From NCBI GenBank assembly GCA_045578245.1, contig JAZNJX010000098.1, positions 1,188-65,187 on the forward strand: DNA of 64,000 nucleotides. Direction: 5' to 3'. Positions 26,981 to 62,432 of the stretch are shown one piece after another. This DNA comes from Candidatus Fimenecus sp. Lineage in GTDB: Bacteria > Bacillota > Clostridia > Oscillospirales > Acutalibacteraceae. Each line of letters starts with the position of its first letter. Position 1 is the first letter of the stretch. The notes beneath the pieces were generated by a model, which did not search any database, had not been told where the DNA came from, and saw nothing but the letters and a program-made list of their open reading frames with translations. The position numbers were made by a program, and so were the translations under genes.

Positions 26981-27056
26981 GCTGCTATGGCTCAGGTGGC
27001 AGAGCACGTCCTTGGTAAGGACGAGGTCACCGGTTCGAATCCGGTTAGCAGCTCCA
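26981..27056 (+). tRNA. tRNA-Thr (anticodon GGU), CCA encoded
   Basis: Hand-folded cloverleaf. Acceptor GCTGCTA/TAGCAGC, D stem GCTC/GAGC, anticodon stem CGTCC/GGACG with loop TTGGTAA, T arm ACCGG-TTCGAAT-CCGGT. Confidence 0.9.
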
Positions 27057-27057
27057 A
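27012..27057. repeat. attL core (3' part of tRNA-Thr)
   Basis: ttggtaaggacgaggtcaccggttcgaatccggttagcagctccaa, identical to 62387-62432. Confidence 0.9.
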
Positions 27058-27246: not shown

Positions 27247-28437
27247 TTAAACGGATAATTTTTTCATTTCTTCCTGTAAATCTTTGATTTCAAAATGCTC
27301 ATAATAATTTACGGTAGTTGAATAATCTTCGTGTCCCATAATTTCTTGTAATACTTCAGCCTTCATACCCGACTTGGAAGCAAGTGAAGCGAAAGTGTGT
27401 CTTGTGCTATAAGGTGTTAATCTTGGTGGATGCTCTTTTGAAAACTTTTCTTCACCTTCAGGCAGTTCCAGTATACCTAATTCCAATAGTAATGGATAAA
27501 AGTTTCTTGAACGAAAATTTTTCAAATCATATTTCTTTCCTTTTGAATTTGAAATCAGCGGAGAATTTAGTTCAACAACTTTTTTGCTACGAGCTTCTTT
27601 ATACCATTGTTCAATATATGGTCTGATGAAAGGATGTATAGGAACTTTGCGATTCATTCCTGCTTCTGTTTTGCTACCACCAACAATATACCCTTCTTCA
27701 AGATTTACATTATCAGTGGTTACAGCAAAAAGTTCGTTAGGCCTGAACCCGGTGTAAATAAAAGTTAAAATAATTCTTGCAGTTTCCTCTTTATCATTAT
27801 CTTTTAAAAGTTTTATTTCTTCATCGGTGAAAATAGACTTTTCTTTTTGCTGTGCTTTGGGTAACACAAGGAACTGGGCATAGTTTTTATTAAGCAGGTC
27901 ATATTCCATAGCTTTTTTACAAAGCTGGCTACAAAGTTGTTTTACTTTGTCACACTGGTCTCTTGAATATTTTTCTGCACAAAGGTCAATGCATTCTTGA
28001 AAGTGCACTGTGCGTAATTCTCTAACTTTCATATTTGCAATTGATTGCAAATATTTCCATGCAGTTTTATATCCCTGCTCACCTGATGCAGATAATTCTC
28101 TGAAATGAACATCTGACCATTCGCCATAAAGTTTTTGTAGAGTATATGTATTTCTATCACTGATACCATTTATCTGTGCCTCAAGGATTGCTTTTTTCGC
28201 CTCAGTTTCCGTTGCAAAAGAACCGATGAATATTCGCTTTTTATTAACAGTAATTGAAGCTGACCACGGCCGTGACTTTCTTCCCTTTTGTTTATAGATG
28301 CTTCCCTCACCGTTTGCTCTTTTTTTAGAACGCGGGTCTGCAATTTGTTTTCTGCCACACCATTGACAGAATAGAGCATCATCGGGAATTTCCTTTTTAC
28401 ACTTTTTGCAAAGCATTATATCACTCCTTTTGGGCAT
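27247..28437 (-). CDS. int: tyrosine-type site-specific integrase with N-terminal zinc ribbon
   Basis: 396 aa. CKKCKKEIPDDALFCQWCG at the N-terminus. C-terminal RHTFASL...GHEDYSTTVNYYEH catalytic region. Confidence 0.9.
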   Translation of the reverse strand: MPKRSDIMLCKKCKKEIPDDALFCQWCGRKQIADPRSKKRANGEGSIYKQKGRKSRPWSASITVNKKRIFIGSFATETEAKKAILEAQINGISDRNTYTLQKLYGEWSDVHFRELSASGEQGYKTAWKYLQSIANMKVRELRTVHFQECIDLCAEKYSRDQCDKVKQLCSQLCKKAMEYDLLNKNYAQFLVLPKAQQKEKSIFTDEEIKLLKDNDKEETARIILTFIYTGFRPNELFAVTTDNVNLEEGYIVGGSKTEAGMNRKVPIHPFIRPYIEQWYKEARSKKVVELNSPLISNSKGKKYDLKNFRSRNFYPLLLELGILELPEGEEKFSKEHPPRLTPYSTRHTFASLASKSGMKAEVLQEIMGHEDYSTTVNYYEHFEIKDLQEEMKKLSV

Positions 28438-57995: not shown

Positions 57996-58295
57996 GTGAT
58001 AGATAAAATAATTCTCATAGCATCTCTTTTAACTGCTTTGGGTGTAATTGTTGCTACTGCAATTAAAGTATATAAATTTGTCCGAAAATGCGAAAAGTGG
58101 ATTGAGAAAAAAGACAAGCACGATATAGAACAGTACAAAGATATTCTGCGAATAAAAATAATGATGCCTGAAATGCCACTTTCGGAAAGAATTGCAGCAG
58201 GCGATATATATGTCAATACTCTACACGAAAATGGTGGAGTCAAGAAAAAGTATGAAGAATTGCTAAACCGATTTAGCGAAGAACATAAGGAGTGA
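57996..58295 (+). CDS. single-pass membrane protein, possible holin/lysis accessory
   Basis: VIDKIILIASLLTALGVIVATAIKVY TM helix. GTG 57996 follows GGAGGTGA. Confidence 0.4.
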   Translation: MIDKIILIASLLTALGVIVATAIKVYKFVRKCEKWIEKKDKHDIEQYKDILRIKIMMPEMPLSERIAAGDIYVNTLHENGGVKKKYEELLNRFSEEHKE

Positions 58296-58300
58296 TAATT

Positions 58301-59128
58301 ATGAAAAATTATCTTACATACCCTTGTAAAGTGATGAATATCACACAGGGGTACACAGGAAACTATAGCCATGGACCACACAATACAGGTGCACCGAAGG
58401 ATTATCCATGGGATGAAGCATGTGAGAACTCTGGAAGAAGCCCTATGTATTGTCCTTGTGATGAAATGATTGTTAAAAGGGTCTATATCAAAGGCACGAA
58501 CACCATCTGGCTTGAAAGTACAACACCAGTGTATTTTGCTGATGGAACAAGCGATTATGTTACCTTAATGGTGATGCACCCTAATGACAGTGATGTTGCA
58601 AAACTTAAAGAGGGACAGAAGTTCAAGAGAGGAAAACTTATCTGTCACGAAGGCACTGATGGTAATGCAACAGGTAATCACTTCCATTTTGCTGTTGGTA
58701 AAGGCAAGATGAAAGGCAATGGCTGGGTTAAAAACTCAAAAGGTAAATGGGTATTATCTACCGTGAATGGCTCAAAGAAACCTGAAACAATGTTCTACAT
58801 TGACCCGAAATTCACAACAGTTAAGAACCAAAAGGGATTAAGGTTTAAAGAACTTCCAAAGGAAGATAACTTCTTCCCACCACACGGATATTTCCGTAAA
58901 GGTGACAAAGGCGAAAATGTTGAGAAAATCAATCAGTTCTATCATGATGTTTTCCCTGTGTATGAGAAAACATTGAATCGTAATGCCGATGATGTTTTAG
59001 GTGTTCTTTTTGGTGACAATAGCGTTGCCTGGACTAAAGAGTTTCAAATACGTACCGGATTAACGCCAGACGGCAATTTTGGACCAAAAACATATGCAAA
59101 AGCCCAAGAGTTTGGGTTTGAATTTTAA
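58301..59128 (+). CDS. endolysin: metallopeptidase (M23-like HxH) domain + PG_binding_1 domain
   Basis: GNHFHFAVGKG, and C-terminal GDKGENV...TKEFQIRTGLTPDGNFGPKTYAKA. Confidence 0.7.
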   Translation: MKNYLTYPCKVMNITQGYTGNYSHGPHNTGAPKDYPWDEACENSGRSPMYCPCDEMIVKRVYIKGTNTIWLESTTPVYFADGTSDYVTLMVMHPNDSDVAKLKEGQKFKRGKLICHEGTDGNATGNHFHFAVGKGKMKGNGWVKNSKGKWVLSTVNGSKKPETMFYIDPKFTTVKNQKGLRFKELPKEDNFFPPHGYFRKGDKGENVEKINQFYHDVFPVYEKTLNRNADDVLGVLFGDNSVAWTKEFQIRTGLTPDGNFGPKTYAKAQEFGFEF

Positions 59129-59144
59129 TTAAAGGAGAATTATT

Positions 59145-59474
59145 ATGGAAATCATTAAGAATTACATTATCATCCCTATTATTTTAGTGTGCCTCATTGT
59201 AGGTTACATCCTTAAAAACATTGTCTCCACAGACAAAATCAACAAGTTCATTCCACTTATTATGGCCGTTCTTGGTGTTCTTCTAAGCCTCTGGCTAAAC
59301 GACTGGCAGTTCACTGTGAATGTGATGCTCGGTGGTCTTGTCTCTGGTCTTGCATCTTCAGGTACATACGATGGATATAAAGGACTTAAAGAATACTTTG
59401 GCAATATTAAAGGATTTAAAGATTTTTTTGTTGATATTGTTGATAAATACTTTTTCAACAAAAAAAACGAATGA
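59145..59474 (+). CDS. holin (phi LC3/Hol44-like, multi-TM)
   Basis: 109 aa, three hydrophobic helices and a GGLVSGLASSGTYDG motif. Confidence 0.65.
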   Translation: MEIIKNYIIIPIILVCLIVGYILKNIVSTDKINKFIPLIMAVLGVLLSLWLNDWQFTVNVMLGGLVSGLASSGTYDGYKGLKEYFGNIKGFKDFFVDIVDKYFFNKKNE

Positions 59475-59555
59475 TTTTTTATTTAAAAAACTGAATTGAT
59501 ACAATCAAATAAAGAAACACGTATTTTTTTATTACTTTATATAGGAGCTGTAAAT

Positions 59556-60050
59556 ATGAAATTTAATGAAGCTTTAAATCTTATGAAACAAGGTTTCAAA
59601 GTAAAACTTCCATCCTGGGGTGGATATTGGTGCTGGGACGAAGAAAAACAGACCATTATGATGCACTGCAAGGAAGGTAACGTTCTCGATATTAGAAAGA
59701 CACAGAGAGTTGAATACACTCTTGGAAACATCATGTCAGATGAGTGGATTGTTGCTGATGAAAATAACACTCCAATTCTTGGTGGTGTTGCTACATTTAA
59801 CTTCGGTGAAGCAATCAAATACCTCAAGCGTGGATTCAAGGTGAAACGTCTTGGATGGAATGGTAAGAATCAGTATATTGAACTTGCCAAAGGTATCAGC
59901 TACGTAAACCCTAACGGTGTAGTGATAAACTGCGAACACAAAGATATCGGAAATATGGCAATTGCCTTTAACGGTACATCAGGCGTACAAATGGGCTGGC
60001 TTGCCTCACAGTCAGACATGCTTGCCGAAGACTGGATTTTCGCAGAATAA
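59556..60050 (+). CDS. tandem DUF2829 (Tad2-like) protein
   Basis: Two DUF2829-type modules: MKFNEALNLMKQGFKVKLPSWGG...SDEWIVADE and FNFGEAIKYLKRGFKVKRLGWNGKNQYIEL...LAEDWIFAE. ATG 59556 follows AGGAG. Confidence 0.65.
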   Translation: MKFNEALNLMKQGFKVKLPSWGGYWCWDEEKQTIMMHCKEGNVLDIRKTQRVEYTLGNIMSDEWIVADENNTPILGGVATFNFGEAIKYLKRGFKVKRLGWNGKNQYIELAKGISYVNPNGVVINCEHKDIGNMAIAFNGTSGVQMGWLASQSDMLAEDWIFAE

Positions 60051-60121
60051 CCATTTTGCAATCAAATGCAAAATGATATAATGATATCATAATATCAAAA
60101 TTGAATATTTAGAATCATTTT

Positions 60122-60161
60122 TCCCCCTGTAGAACTCAAGGCTCTTAAGGGGGGATTTTTT
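60122..60161 (+). terminator. rho-independent terminator ending the late/lysis operon
   Basis: tccccct ... aggggga stem followed by TTTTTT. Confidence 0.6.
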
Positions 60162-60318
60162 AATGCAAAAAAATTGTTGCAACACTAACAAAAAGTCAAA
60201 TATTTTCGATTAAAGCTGTAAAGTCAAAAATAAAGAAGAAAATTATCGAAAACATGAAAAATAATGCAAGAAACATTATTTATAGTACTATTTTGGATAA
60301 AATTGGAAATAAACTTCC

Positions 60319-60347
60319 TTGATATATTTGAAAAAGCAAATTAAAAT
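60319..60347 (+). promoter_or_regulatory. candidate promoter of the cargo XRE gene
   Basis: TTGATA, 17 nt, TAAAAT. Confidence 0.45.
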
Positions 60348-60368
60348 TATTTCAAAAGAGGTCGGGCT

Positions 60369-60611
60369 ATGAAAGAAAAAGAGAAGTTTGGAAAATTGAT
60401 TAGAGATAGCAGAGAGAATAAAAACTTATCTCGAGAACAACTTGCCGAGAGGTGCAAAGTCACAGACAAAAGTATAAGTAATATAGAACTCGGCAAATCC
60501 GACCCTAAGTTAAGTACGGTTATGCGCATATGCAATGTACTTGAAATTGATGTGAAAGCTTTAGCTGAATTCACATTTATGGAAGAGGATGCTGATGTTG
60601 AGTCGTTTTAA
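60369..60611 (+). CDS. XRE-family HTH regulator (cargo cassette)
   Basis: 80 aa; LSREQLAERCKVTDKSISNIELGKSDP. Confidence 0.75.
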   Translation: MKEKEKFGKLIRDSRENKNLSREQLAERCKVTDKSISNIELGKSDPKLSTVMRICNVLEIDVKALAEFTFMEEDADVESF

Positions 60612-60708
60612 TTTAATAAATGTTGGGTTTTGTCAATCAGTGTTGTACTTTCAGTAAAAGAGAAGAAAACTTATTGGACAATACGGGTATATTTTTTCTG
60701 TTTCCGTA

Positions 60709-60737
60709 TTGTATTTAATTTTATGTTTTGTTATAAT
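60709..60737 (+). promoter_or_regulatory. candidate extended -10 promoter of the three-gene cargo operon
   Basis: TTGTAT, 17-nt spacer ending in TGt, then TATAAT. Confidence 0.45.
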
Positions 60738-60874
60738 TAGCGAAAGGGGTTAGCGTTTTTACACAAACTAATAACATACTTTAAGTTCATTTGTAAACTG
60801 TACAAGCGTATAAGCATAGTATTAAGTAGGTTGTATTTTCTAATACAGATAGGGTTTGTGTATTAAGAAAAAAT

Positions 60875-61273
60875 ATGGAGCAACACCTTAAAAATCATTT
60901 TAAAAAAACATATCAAATAATTCACTGTATAGAAATAGTTTTATTCATTGTGGGACTTTTTTTTGAATGCTATAATGTATATAATGAAACTAATGTGAAT
61001 CTGTTTTTTCTTGCTACCACAATATATATACTTAATAATTATTTCCAAATAATAAAAATGACACAAGAGACTAATGGCATATTGCCATATGTATTTCTTG
61101 GGTCCATTTCTGCTTTGGGAATAATTATTGTTATAGAATTTTTGAGTTATGTTGTTGCCAATGTTGGAACTAGTATTTTGCCAATAAAGACACCAGTATA
61201 TGTGTTGTATTTTGTGGTTTTTATTAGTGAAATATACAAATTAACTATAGAATATAAACCGCCTTCAAAATAA
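60875..61273 (+). CDS. four-TM membrane protein, no recognisable family
   Basis: 132 aa, four hydrophobic helices. Confidence 0.55.
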   Translation: MEQHLKNHFKKTYQIIHCIEIVLFIVGLFFECYNVYNETNVNLFFLATTIYILNNYFQIIKMTQETNGILPYVFLGSISALGIIIVIEFLSYVVANVGTSILPIKTPVYVLYFVVFISEIYKLTIEYKPPSK

Positions 61274-61311
61274 AAACTAATTATGAAATTAAGAATATGG
61301 TGGAGAAAATT

Positions 61312-61677
61312 ATGAGTTTTATAGAAGTATTAGCTATTATATTAATGATTGCATTTGGAGCTTGTTCTTTGTTCGGTTTGATACTTGTTGTCAAGAAAGT
61401 AATTAATTACCTGCTTTCCAATAAAAAGGTTTTTATAGGGAACGAAGTACAGCTCAATAGTTGCATGATTAATGATTCGTATGTGTTCCTTGAAATGAAT
61501 AACACTATTGAAAAACAGATATCAACAATTTTGTACTATTTGCGATTAAGTGAAAATGGTAGGTTGTATAGGGAACATCCGTTTTTTCTAATGCAGAATA
61601 ATGGTGCAAATCCATGTGAAATAGACAAGGTTATTGAGATAAGACATAACTTTACGGAAGAACAATTATATATTTAA
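61312..61677 (+). CDS. single-pass membrane protein with ~85-aa soluble domain, no recognisable family
   Basis: ATG 61312 follows GGTGGAG; TM helix FIEVLAIILMIAFGACSLFGLILVV. Confidence 0.55.
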   Translation: MSFIEVLAIILMIAFGACSLFGLILVVKKVINYLLSNKKVFIGNEVQLNSCMINDSYVFLEMNNTIEKQISTILYYLRLSENGRLYREHPFFLMQNNGANPCEIDKVIEIRHNFTEEQLYI

Positions 61678-61710
61678 TATATAAAACAATGTGTATAAGG
61701 AAGTAATAGC

Positions 61711-62295
61711 GTGGAAAAAACTGCAGAATACTCTTGGGATGCATTAGAAAAATGTTTTGAAAAAGATATTCATCCTAAGTACCCAGAAATAGAATTTAAT
61801 AAAATCAAGAAAGAACAGTTTAAAAGAACTTTTTGTGAATCTTATAAATATGTCAAAGCCAAATACATGACGGAAGATACAGAATGTTTAGACAGACATA
61901 AGCAGGCAGCAATCTTGATTTGCTGTGTACTAAAGGAAGATATTTTGGTTTCGCAAAAAATTCCTGAAGGTAAAGAATTTGTAGGAAAGTATTCATTAGC
62001 TCTATCATTAGGATTAGCTTTTATGTTGGACCGTTTAAAGGAAAGATTTGATGAAACTGGTATTGAAGAAGAAATAAACGATTTAACTGATATTATTGCT
62101 TTTGCGTGTCCAACAAATTATTTTGATGTTCTTTTTAGAAATCTGTACTTTGAGGAAAAGGAACAGGGCTCAGTGTTTGTATTGACTTTAGCAAACACCT
62201 TGTTTCTGTTGGAGTATATTGCGTTAATGAAAAAAAATATACCATTTGAAAAGTTAAGAGAATATAATGATGATGGTACCGAAAAAGAGATTTAA
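61711..62295 (+). CDS. cytoplasmic helical protein, no recognisable family
   Basis: 194 aa, GTG start after AAGGAAG; last gene before attR. Confidence 0.55.
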   Translation: MEKTAEYSWDALEKCFEKDIHPKYPEIEFNKIKKEQFKRTFCESYKYVKAKYMTEDTECLDRHKQAAILICCVLKEDILVSQKIPEGKEFVGKYSLALSLGLAFMLDRLKERFDETGIEEEINDLTDIIAFACPTNYFDVLFRNLYFEEKEQGSVFVLTLANTLFLLEYIALMKKNIPFEKLREYNDDGTEKEI

Positions 62296-62353
62296 AGATG
62301 TAAAAAGCATTATGTTTCAGAAAAGATTACAAACGTTTCACAAACATTAATCA

Positions 62354-62388
62354 AAATCCCCTTAATATACAAGGGGATTTGTTTATTT
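62354..62388 (+). terminator. rho-independent terminator abutting attR
   Basis: Perfect 10-bp stem aaatcccctt/aaggggattt, 7-nt loop, then gtttattt. Confidence 0.65.
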
Positions 62389-62432
62389 GGTAAGGACGAG
62401 GTCACCGGTTCGAATCCGGTTAGCAGCTCCAA
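62387..62432. repeat. attR core (displaced 3' tRNA-Thr fragment)
   Basis: 46/46 identical to 27012-27057. Lacks the 5' half of the tRNA. Confidence 0.9.

Follow-up and report, generated by a model that had tools for sequence, protein, structure and literature searches.

The attR end of a prophage in an uncultured Clostridia bacterium (Candidatus Fimenecus sp., contig JAZNJX010000098.1) carries an AT-rich cassette of four genes, three of which (here called g2, g3, and g4) keep the same order at ~15 distinct loci in gut and rumen Clostridia and match no family in the databases searched. The cassette lies on the plus strand near the right end of a 64,000-nucleotide stretch of this contig (here referred to as the window) and encodes an XRE-family helix-turn-helix (HTH) regulator (g1), a polytopic membrane protein (g2), a single-pass membrane anchor (g3), and a cytosolic all-alpha protein (g4). 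Our tentative reading, to which we give somewhat less than an even chance, is that the g2-g3-g4 trio is an undescribed membrane-linked defense system, acting by abortive infection or exclusion, in which g4 forms the core and the effector is in the membrane. Once nonabortive exclusion is counted in, a defensive role becomes fairly probable; anti-defense, addiction, and other host-modulating roles, taken jointly, appear rather unlikely.

The g2-g3-g4 trio recurs on unrelated mobile elements

A gene for a protein with several transmembrane (TM) segments, a gene for a single-TM protein, and a g4 homolog follow one another in this order in the window and at loci L017, L011, L012, L001, L007, L013, L014, L015/16, L019, L021, and L022/23, and likewise at L111/112, L113, L115-117, L118, and L120. 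The g2 position is held by a multi-TM gene at all canonical loci. Full four-gene cassettes, with the XRE gene, are found in a related prophage at the same tRNA-Thr site (L017), in two prophages whose endolysins differ and in which a different tRNA fragment follows ~90 bp after the end of the cassette (L011 and L012), and on a 275-kb chromosomal contig, where it lies between RHS toxin genes and adjoins a ThsB-like TIR gene (L001). They are also found as the first cargo beside tniQ of a Tn7-like element (L007-L010), and the cargo of Tn7-like elements is rich in defense systems (bioRxiv 10.1101/2021.08.23.457393).

More distant g4 homologs (25-45% identity) keep the multi-TM, single-TM, g4 order without an XRE gene. 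They occur on conjugative elements (L013, L111/112, and L118), on an integrase island (L113), on an island with a PD-T4-6-like kinase (3e-38), SocA_Panacea, and Fic (L115-117), in Lachnospiraceae chromosomes (L014-16), and on other contigs (L019, L021-23, and L120). Because these homologs keep the trio and lack the XRE gene, we consider the trio to be the core and the XRE gene an accessory of the closest clade. The original prediction, made from the letters of the window, had described a self-contained cassette of four genes and had named their co-occurrence elsewhere as a test. All four genes are present, and the order of the trio is conserved at the ~15 loci, but the unit that is conserved is g2-g3-g4, with the XRE gene restricted to the closest clade.

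The pattern of divergence differs along the cassette. Among six cassettes, amino acid (aa) identity is 77-100% for the XRE protein and 50-89% for g4, versus 20-77% for g2 and 17-65% for g3. At the DNA level, window positions 60777 to 61567, covering g2 and the first two-thirds of g3, have no detectable homology to L001, L007, or L012, whereas both arms are 70-75% identical. In one pair of loci (L011 and L001), the XRE proteins are 100% identical and the g2 proteins 29% identical. This contrast, together with the nonhomologous center, points to recombination between cassette alleles, and the mosaic divergence fits either diversifying selection or allele shuffling in the membrane parts. In L001, and likewise in L003 and L004, g4 is immediately followed on its own strand by a fifth gene (8814-9371 in L001), whose 185-aa product has 3 TM segments; the prophage copies lack this gene.

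AT-rich DNA gives many spurious open reading frames (ORFs), and promoter-like hits in the window are no more common than in shuffled sequence, so one might ask whether the cassette is no functional unit at all and consists of chance ORFs in junk at the prophage end. However, homologs of all four proteins keep their frame, length, and order down to 17-30% identity, and the g4 family comprises 310 clusters, with a fold predicted at high confidence. We regard this explanation as already refuted and its probability as negligible.

g2, g3, and g4 fall outside the families searched

The g2 gene (60875-61273, plus strand) encodes a 132-aa polytopic membrane protein with three to four hydrophobic segments (~4 TM segments), both ends of which are predicted to be cytoplasmic (N-in/C-in) by the positive-inside rule. 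The product of g3 (61312-61677, plus strand) is a 121-aa single-pass anchor with a TM segment at approximately residues 5-27 and a predicted N-out/C-in orientation; its start codon is an ATG (61312) served by the ribosome-binding site GGTGGAG, in agreement with the 121-aa NCBI call. Only ~4 residues of g3 are placed outside the cell. The TM segment is followed by lysines, a variable linker, and a cytoplasmic C-terminal motif (PFFLMQNNGANPCEI) that is conserved in 13 of the 15 aligned g3 proteins.

The g4 gene (61711-62295, plus strand) begins with a GTG at 61711, preceded by an AAGGAAG ribosome-binding site, and encodes a 194-aa cytosolic protein. AlphaFold2 (AF2) modeled it as all helical (pLDDT 89, pTM 0.87), and the g4 domain within a natural g3-g4 fusion (P0034) was modeled at a pLDDT of ~95 from a 51-sequence alignment. 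An exhaustive profile search placed 310 clusters (at 50% identity) in the g4 family at E values of ≤1e-3, 182 of them at ≤1e-10; the metagenome scan for g4 relatives used a 15-sequence alignment. For g2, g3, and g4 alike, database names say nothing beyond "hypothetical protein." In 73 diverse members of the g4 family, H63 and E168 never vary, and W9, M53, L60, D61, K64, C133, R143, and L145 are nearly invariant. The conserved residues H63 and E168, together with D61, K64, C133, and R143, suggest a defined ligand-binding or catalytic site.

None of g2, g3, and g4 had a match in Pfam, PHROGs, NCBIfam, or PADLOC, and Pfam scans of 73 g4 and 13 g2 homologs, run one by one, also returned no match. 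Searches against PDB sequence profiles gave nothing below an E value of 0.1, and Foldseek, run on two confident models for PDB and on one for BFVD, gave nothing below 0.9. The statement in the original prediction that these three proteins could not be assigned to a known family therefore held across Pfam, PHROGs, NCBIfam, PADLOC, PDB profiles, and Foldseek searches of PDB and BFVD, and its test of homology to ordinary phage or host proteins turned up none for g2, g3, or g4.

Several specific identities were considered and rejected. A Fic/Doc fold for g4 was suggested by a structural match to Doc (3kh2_C, E value of 2.2, probability of 0.33); we discarded this lead because the HxFx(D/E)GNxR motif is absent from the g4 alignment and the match did not recur with the model of fusion P0034. 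Homology of g2 to RexB and of g4 to RexA received hhalign probabilities of 2% and 0.1%, respectively. A holin, antiholin, or lysis role was set aside as well: neither g2 nor g3 matches a PHROG or Pfam holin, whereas the real holin of this prophage (59145-59474) does, and the trio is also found in transposon, conjugative-element, and chromosomal contexts, which argues against a lysis function.

The g3 tail motif occurs with different partners beside g4

Six members of the family (P0012, P0032, P0034, P0048, P0060, and P0149) are natural fusions of g3 and g4, in which an N-terminal TM segment is followed by an FFKMxNxG motif and then by the g4 domain. These fusions argue that g3 and g4 act together and that the g3 tail is cytoplasmic. 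At two further loci, the motif is found with other partners. In L024 (2684-3397), the gene before g4 has no TM segment and instead encodes a DUF4062 domain (PF13271, 7e-28), a coiled coil, and then the g3 motif (FLKMKNSGKNPCD); upstream of this gene lie a gene with a nucleoside 2-deoxyribosyltransferase domain and a methyltransferase gene. In L025 (6332-7924), a PLDc_2 gene (2.7e-22) is followed by a gene for a 3-TM protein that ends in the g3 motif, and an AbiEii toxin gene (2e-42) is located ~1.4 kb upstream.

Conflict systems, among them CBASS, Pycsar, Thoeris, and Avs, are characteristically built from a conserved core whose TM, NADase, or nuclease partner can be exchanged. DUF4062 has been reported, in two 2026 preprints (bioRxiv 10.64898/2026.05.01.722283 and 10.64898/2026.06.25.731849), to serve as a TIR-like NADase effector in abortive-infection systems, among them Swarozyc and Evangelion; the latter is described as encoded by a single gene, its one protein combining the DUF4062 core with an auxiliary region (10.64898/2026.06.25.731849). 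The L024 variant, in which DUF4062 is attached to the g3 adaptor motif and a g4 homolog lies alongside, may follow this abortive-infection logic as well; g4 would then take the place, in trans, of the "auxiliary/sensor" region. The window cassette differs from these systems in that it has no Pfam match to DUF4062, a domain present only in the L024 variant, and the parts of the two preprints covered contain no mention of g4.

The membrane location of the trio also fits nonabortive superinfection or entry exclusion, in which g2, g3, and g4 would block incoming phage or conjugative DNA at injection, as do P22 SieA and T4 Imm. Two of the three proteins would be in the membrane and the third tethered to it, the cassette has the position of a moron at the prophage end in four phages, and the trio is present on conjugative elements, which commonly encode entry exclusion. 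Exclusion proteins are usually element specific, however, while the trio family spans unrelated element types; the replacement of the anchor by a DUF4062 NADase-type protein, or the addition of a PLD-like gene, points to a cell-killing effector logic; and g2 and g3 have almost no extracytoplasmic mass. We judge this alternative distinctly unlikely. A literature search found nothing relevant on membrane-type prophage exclusion in Lachnospiraceae.

The regulator and the trio have separate, conserved control elements

The XRE gene g1 (60369-60611, plus strand) encodes an 80-aa protein that consists of the HTH domain only. It matches HTH_3 (5.4e-13; 49.2 bits against a cutoff of 23) and HTH_19 (1.3e-12) in Pfam and HTH_VI (2e-15), the restriction-modification Control_protein (1.8e-9), and capH (2.9e-8) in PADLOC. 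Promoter 1, which serves this gene (60319-60347, plus strand), has the form TTGATA-17-TAAAAT, with 10 of 12 consensus matches, and is conserved in five loci. Over its -35 box lies the element TTGGAAATAAACTTCCTTGA (60303-60322, plus strand), an inverted repeat of the form GGAA-N6-TTCC that is nearly invariant across five loci and occurs once in the window compared with 0.06 occurrences expected by chance. We consider it a candidate XRE operator.

Downstream of g1, a hairpin (CAATACGG...CCGTATTG) followed by a T-rich run (60679-60711, plus strand) forms the apparent terminator of the XRE transcript. Its fold has a z-score of -4.4 relative to shuffles, 100% of its cells are paired in six loci, and two of its pairs show compensatory double changes. 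The hairpin overlaps the -35 box of promoter 2 (60709-60737, plus strand), which precedes g2-g3-g4 and has an extended -10 box (TGTTATAAT, 60729-60737) of the form TG-n-TA(A/T)AAT that is kept in all six XRE-clade loci. Since a hairpin and then a separate operon promoter occupy the 264-bp gap between g1 and g2, the regulator and the operon are separate transcription units.

The original prediction had proposed these same two promoters. The first was found by our promoter scan and the second was absent from its output because its -35 box is weak. Promoter-like sites in the window were not in excess over shuffles (16 found versus 19 expected), and the case for the promoters therefore rests on cross-locus conservation and not on the scan: homologous cassettes from unrelated contexts retain both of them, base for base. 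An Rfam search of the window's own leader and intergenic region gave no match, and the 135-nucleotide (nt) leader folds no better than shuffles (z-score of +0.5). Approximately 150 bp 5' of the XRE promoter, a palindrome (TTTTGTCACAAAA) is conserved in L001, L007, L011, and L012 and degenerate in the window (~60180-60195); a half-site (TTTTGTCA) recurs just past the XRE stop codon (60640-60647). These sequences may be a second operator.

The XRE protein most likely would autoregulate and repress or time the operon promoter, as do the controller (C) proteins of mobile restriction-modification systems. Like C proteins and the CapH regulators of CBASS, it is encoded by a small XRE HTH gene 5' of a mobile, potentially toxic operon, with a conserved inverted-repeat element over its own promoter. 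Unlike them, g1 matches these families only at the level of the generic HTH fold, and no CapP-like protease partner accompanies it.

Another alternative is an addiction module, in which toxic membrane proteins would be neutralized or repressed by XRE or g4 and the carrier element would thereby be stabilized. At the level of its HTH, the XRE protein is similar to antitoxins of the HipB/Y4mF type (TIGR03070, 7e-11, below the cutoff of that model), regulation is tight, and the genes are always on mobile elements, some with neighbors of the toxin-antitoxin type (RelB, SocA_Panacea, and AbiEii). Nevertheless, the XRE gene is 264 bp from g2, with a terminator and a second promoter in between, unlike the overlapping genes of toxin-antitoxin pairs; most clades that keep the trio lack XRE; and a three-gene order with g3-g4 fusions is a poor fit to a two-part system. 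We consider such a role very unlikely. The narrower identity of a standard type II toxin-antitoxin pair was rejected because the transcription units are separate, as the covarying terminator and second promoter indicate, and because XRE is dispensable across clades, being absent from the distant ones.

A different control element precedes the trio in sister clades. In the next-closest clade, whose g4 proteins are 44-45% identical to that of the window and one member of which (P0192) was seen on >70 contigs, the operon has no XRE gene, and a ribosomal L10 leader (RF00557) ends ~25 nt before g2. This leader is full length in L019 (1827-1939), L115 (5367-5481), and L116 and L117 (3596-3710 in both), where it scores 65.7 to 70 bits against a gathering score of 44, and both the L10-binding core and the terminator are preserved. 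In a second clade (L022, 2754-2869), a local search found a diverged, full-length L10 leader with a subthreshold score of 32.4 bits (E value of 9e-4). No L10 leader was found in the window or in L111. The preserved elements imply that, in the clades with the leader, expression would be attenuated by free L10(L12)4 and possibly be tied to ribosome status.

Ribosomal-protein leaders are generally seen as belonging to ribosomal operons only. A ribosomal autoregulatory attenuator ahead of a nonribosomal operon on a mobile island is unusual, and our literature search found no report of L10-leader co-option. Every clade examined has a form of control, either XRE with a terminator and a separate promoter or an L10-leader attenuator, and such tight control of expression fits a costly or toxic product.

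The cassette is bounded within the prophage and shared with nonphage elements

The prophage is 35.4 kb long and is integrated in a tRNA-Thr gene, and its ends carry identical 46-bp direct repeats. The left repeat, attL (27012-27057, plus strand), is the 3' part of tRNA-Thr-GGT (26981-27056) and is adjoined by an integrase-sized ORF on the minus strand (27247-28437). The right repeat, attR (62387-62432, plus strand), is a piece of the 3' end of tRNA-Thr. The last three genes of the late region encode an M23/peptidoglycan-binding endolysin (58292-59128), a Hol44-type holin with matches to holin families, and, at the very end, a Tad2-like protein (59496-60050, plus strand) that matches PF11195 (7e-25, in two stretches) and PHROG 1048 (3e-57).

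An intrinsic terminator (60121-60161, plus strand) closes this late/lysis operon and insulates the cassette from it; RNA folding gives a hairpin at 60121-60155 of -17 kcal/mol, with an 8-bp G/C stem followed by a U-run. At the other end, the g2-g3-g4 operon is followed by an intrinsic terminator (62354-62380, plus strand) with a 10-bp stem, a T-rich tail, and a z-score of -2.5. It ends 6 nt before attR, an arrangement repeated in L017. Terminator-like sites are enriched (7 found versus 1.8 expected). The original prediction had located the late-operon terminator, the terminator abutting attR, and the four ORFs at or near these same positions. It had set the start of the cassette at 60319, which is close, but nucleotide homology begins ~40 bp earlier. 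In blastn comparisons with the nonphage copies in the L001 chromosomal island and the L007 Tn7-like cargo, homology starts at 60279/60280 and ends at 62233-62274, and we accordingly take 60279-62270 (plus strand) as the extent of the mobile cassette; with the downstream terminator, the insulated region reaches 62380. The claim of an AT-rich composition was borne out: GC content is 0.29 at 60 to 62 kb, compared with 0.34 to 0.39 (approximately 0.36) in the remaining prophage. The cassette stays at 28 to 30% GC in all six homologous loci, irrespective of the flanks.

Judged by these sequence features, the cassette is a horizontally mobile moron, carried next to attR by a temperate phage whose host is an uncultured member of the Clostridia. 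It shares with classical phage morons its own promoter and terminator, a deviant composition, a position between the late operon and the att site, and presence or absence among relatives. The cassette lies directly before attR in four different prophages and is absent from 80 IMG/VR phage contigs chosen for a homolog of the neighboring Tad2-like gene; these contigs have the Tad2-like gene in common, not necessarily the phage backbone, and since Tad2 varies in genome position among them, the comparison downstream of Tad2 says only that the cassette is absent. The moron architecture that had been predicted is thus recovered, including the position at the prophage end, but the module is not restricted to phages: it is also found on Tn7-like transposons, conjugative elements, and chromosomal islands. 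It is this sharing with nonphage mobile elements, along with the internal hypervariable center, that sets the cassette apart from classical morons.

Two observations concern the flanks. A stretch of ~47 nt (TTTTGCAATCAAATGCAAAATGATATAATGATATCATAATATCAAAA) is common to the window just after the Tad2-like gene (60054-60100) and to L012 after the holin gene (2891-2937), although these two phages have differing lysis genes. It includes a promoter-like TTTGCA-16-TATAAT with a TG dinucleotide, and the terminator hairpin comes next. The stretch might mark a recombination joint or else represent a short RNA gene, ~75 nt long. Past attR, the first host gene (from 62554 to the window end, plus strand, running off the window) encodes a protein that begins with an XRE-type HTH and continues as a long polytopic membrane region; the gene is not related to the cassette and is a second pairing of an HTH with membrane segments.

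The neighborhood of the cassette bears on a further alternative, namely, a host-modulating or offensive role such as anti-defense, a membrane-translation link, or immunity against polymorphic toxins or membrane-targeting bacteriocins. The Tad2-like gene, a candidate anti-Thoeris sponge directly 5' of the cassette, is a neighbor in L011 and L017 as well and is not found beside the cassette in L012. ArdC-N and TTRAP accessory genes lie beside the copies on conjugative elements, and RHS toxin genes flank the L001 copy. In two sister clades, the operon comes after the ribosomal L10 leader, a hint that it may be tied to ribosome status. On the other hand, known anti-defense proteins are mostly small, soluble, and encoded by single genes; immunity genes normally follow their toxin directly, while in L001 a 161-aa gene, a beta-lactamase-like gene, and XRE intervene; and the Tad2 neighbor is missing from L012 and from all nonphage contexts. 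This alternative seems unlikely to us.

A candidate membrane-linked defense system

In the defense reading that we favor, g2 (4 TM segments), g3 (the single-pass anchor), and cytosolic g4 would form a three-protein membrane complex, with g4 tethered to the membrane via the short conserved tail motif of g3. The g4 protein would be the conserved sensing or regulatory core and the g3 motif the adaptor that links it to an effector, which in the window would be g2 together with the TM segment of g3. Expressed from the lysogen, the complex would act against phages or other mobile elements, and an activated g2/g3 pair would either compromise the membrane, resulting in abortive infection, or block DNA entry. 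A wider form of this proposal holds that the trio is a family of mobile immune systems built on the new fold of g4, which would recruit swappable effectors (the membrane pair, a DUF4062 NADase, or a PLD-like nuclease) via FFxMxNxGxxPC, and that in the sister clades the pool of free L10(L7/L12)4 would serve to signal infection or translation stress. We regard this wider form as a long shot.

Several results weigh against a defensive role or against parts of the proposed mechanism. The AF2 model of a natural fusion did not dock the g3 motif on g4, and its linker and motif had pLDDT values of only 40 to 45. Among the 5027 PADLOC models, the only match was the generic one to HTH, with 0 families for g2, g3, or g4 at E values of ≤1. 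Defense genes adjoin the trio at only some loci, and the copies on conjugative elements sit among anti-restriction-type genes (ArdC-N), as would suit an offensive role. The family was not found in 50,697 sequenced phages or 72,556 plasmids (blastn/tblastn) or in IMG/VR (pattern scan). Finally, the outward-facing loops of g2 and g3 are tiny, which argues against receptor masking.

Among known systems, lambda RexAB is similar in design: it too is prophage encoded, with presumed expression in the lysogen, and combines a small (~130 to 145 aa) 4-TM protein and a cytosolic partner near an HTH regulator, and the predicted logic is likewise that of a cytosolic sensor acting on a membrane effector. 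The two are unrelated in sequence, and the trio adds the g3 anchor/adaptor and occurs on transposons and conjugative elements. Mycobacteriophage Sbash gp30/gp31 is reportedly analogous to RexAB. Kiwa (a 4-TM KwaA with KwaB), Rst_2TM_1TM_TIR, and Zorya similarly pair small TM proteins with a cytosolic protein in defense islands or mobile elements; in contrast to them, the trio has no PADLOC match at E values of ≤1, and g4 lacks DUF4868 and TIR domains.

If the trio protects against phage, it would be a defense family that is invisible to current HMM sets of the PADLOC type, apparently confined to uncultured gut and rumen Clostridia, in which phage-host biology is poorly charted. The system is tractable: g4 has a confident structure with no known fold neighbor and few invariant polar residues, the short adaptor motif has a partner domain that changes by locus, and the clades offer a contrast between XRE and L10-leader regulation. 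Through an L10 leader such as the one before this membrane operon, mobile elements might sense the state of the host ribosome. If true, this would be the first ribosomal-protein autoregulatory RNA co-opted by a mobile defense operon.

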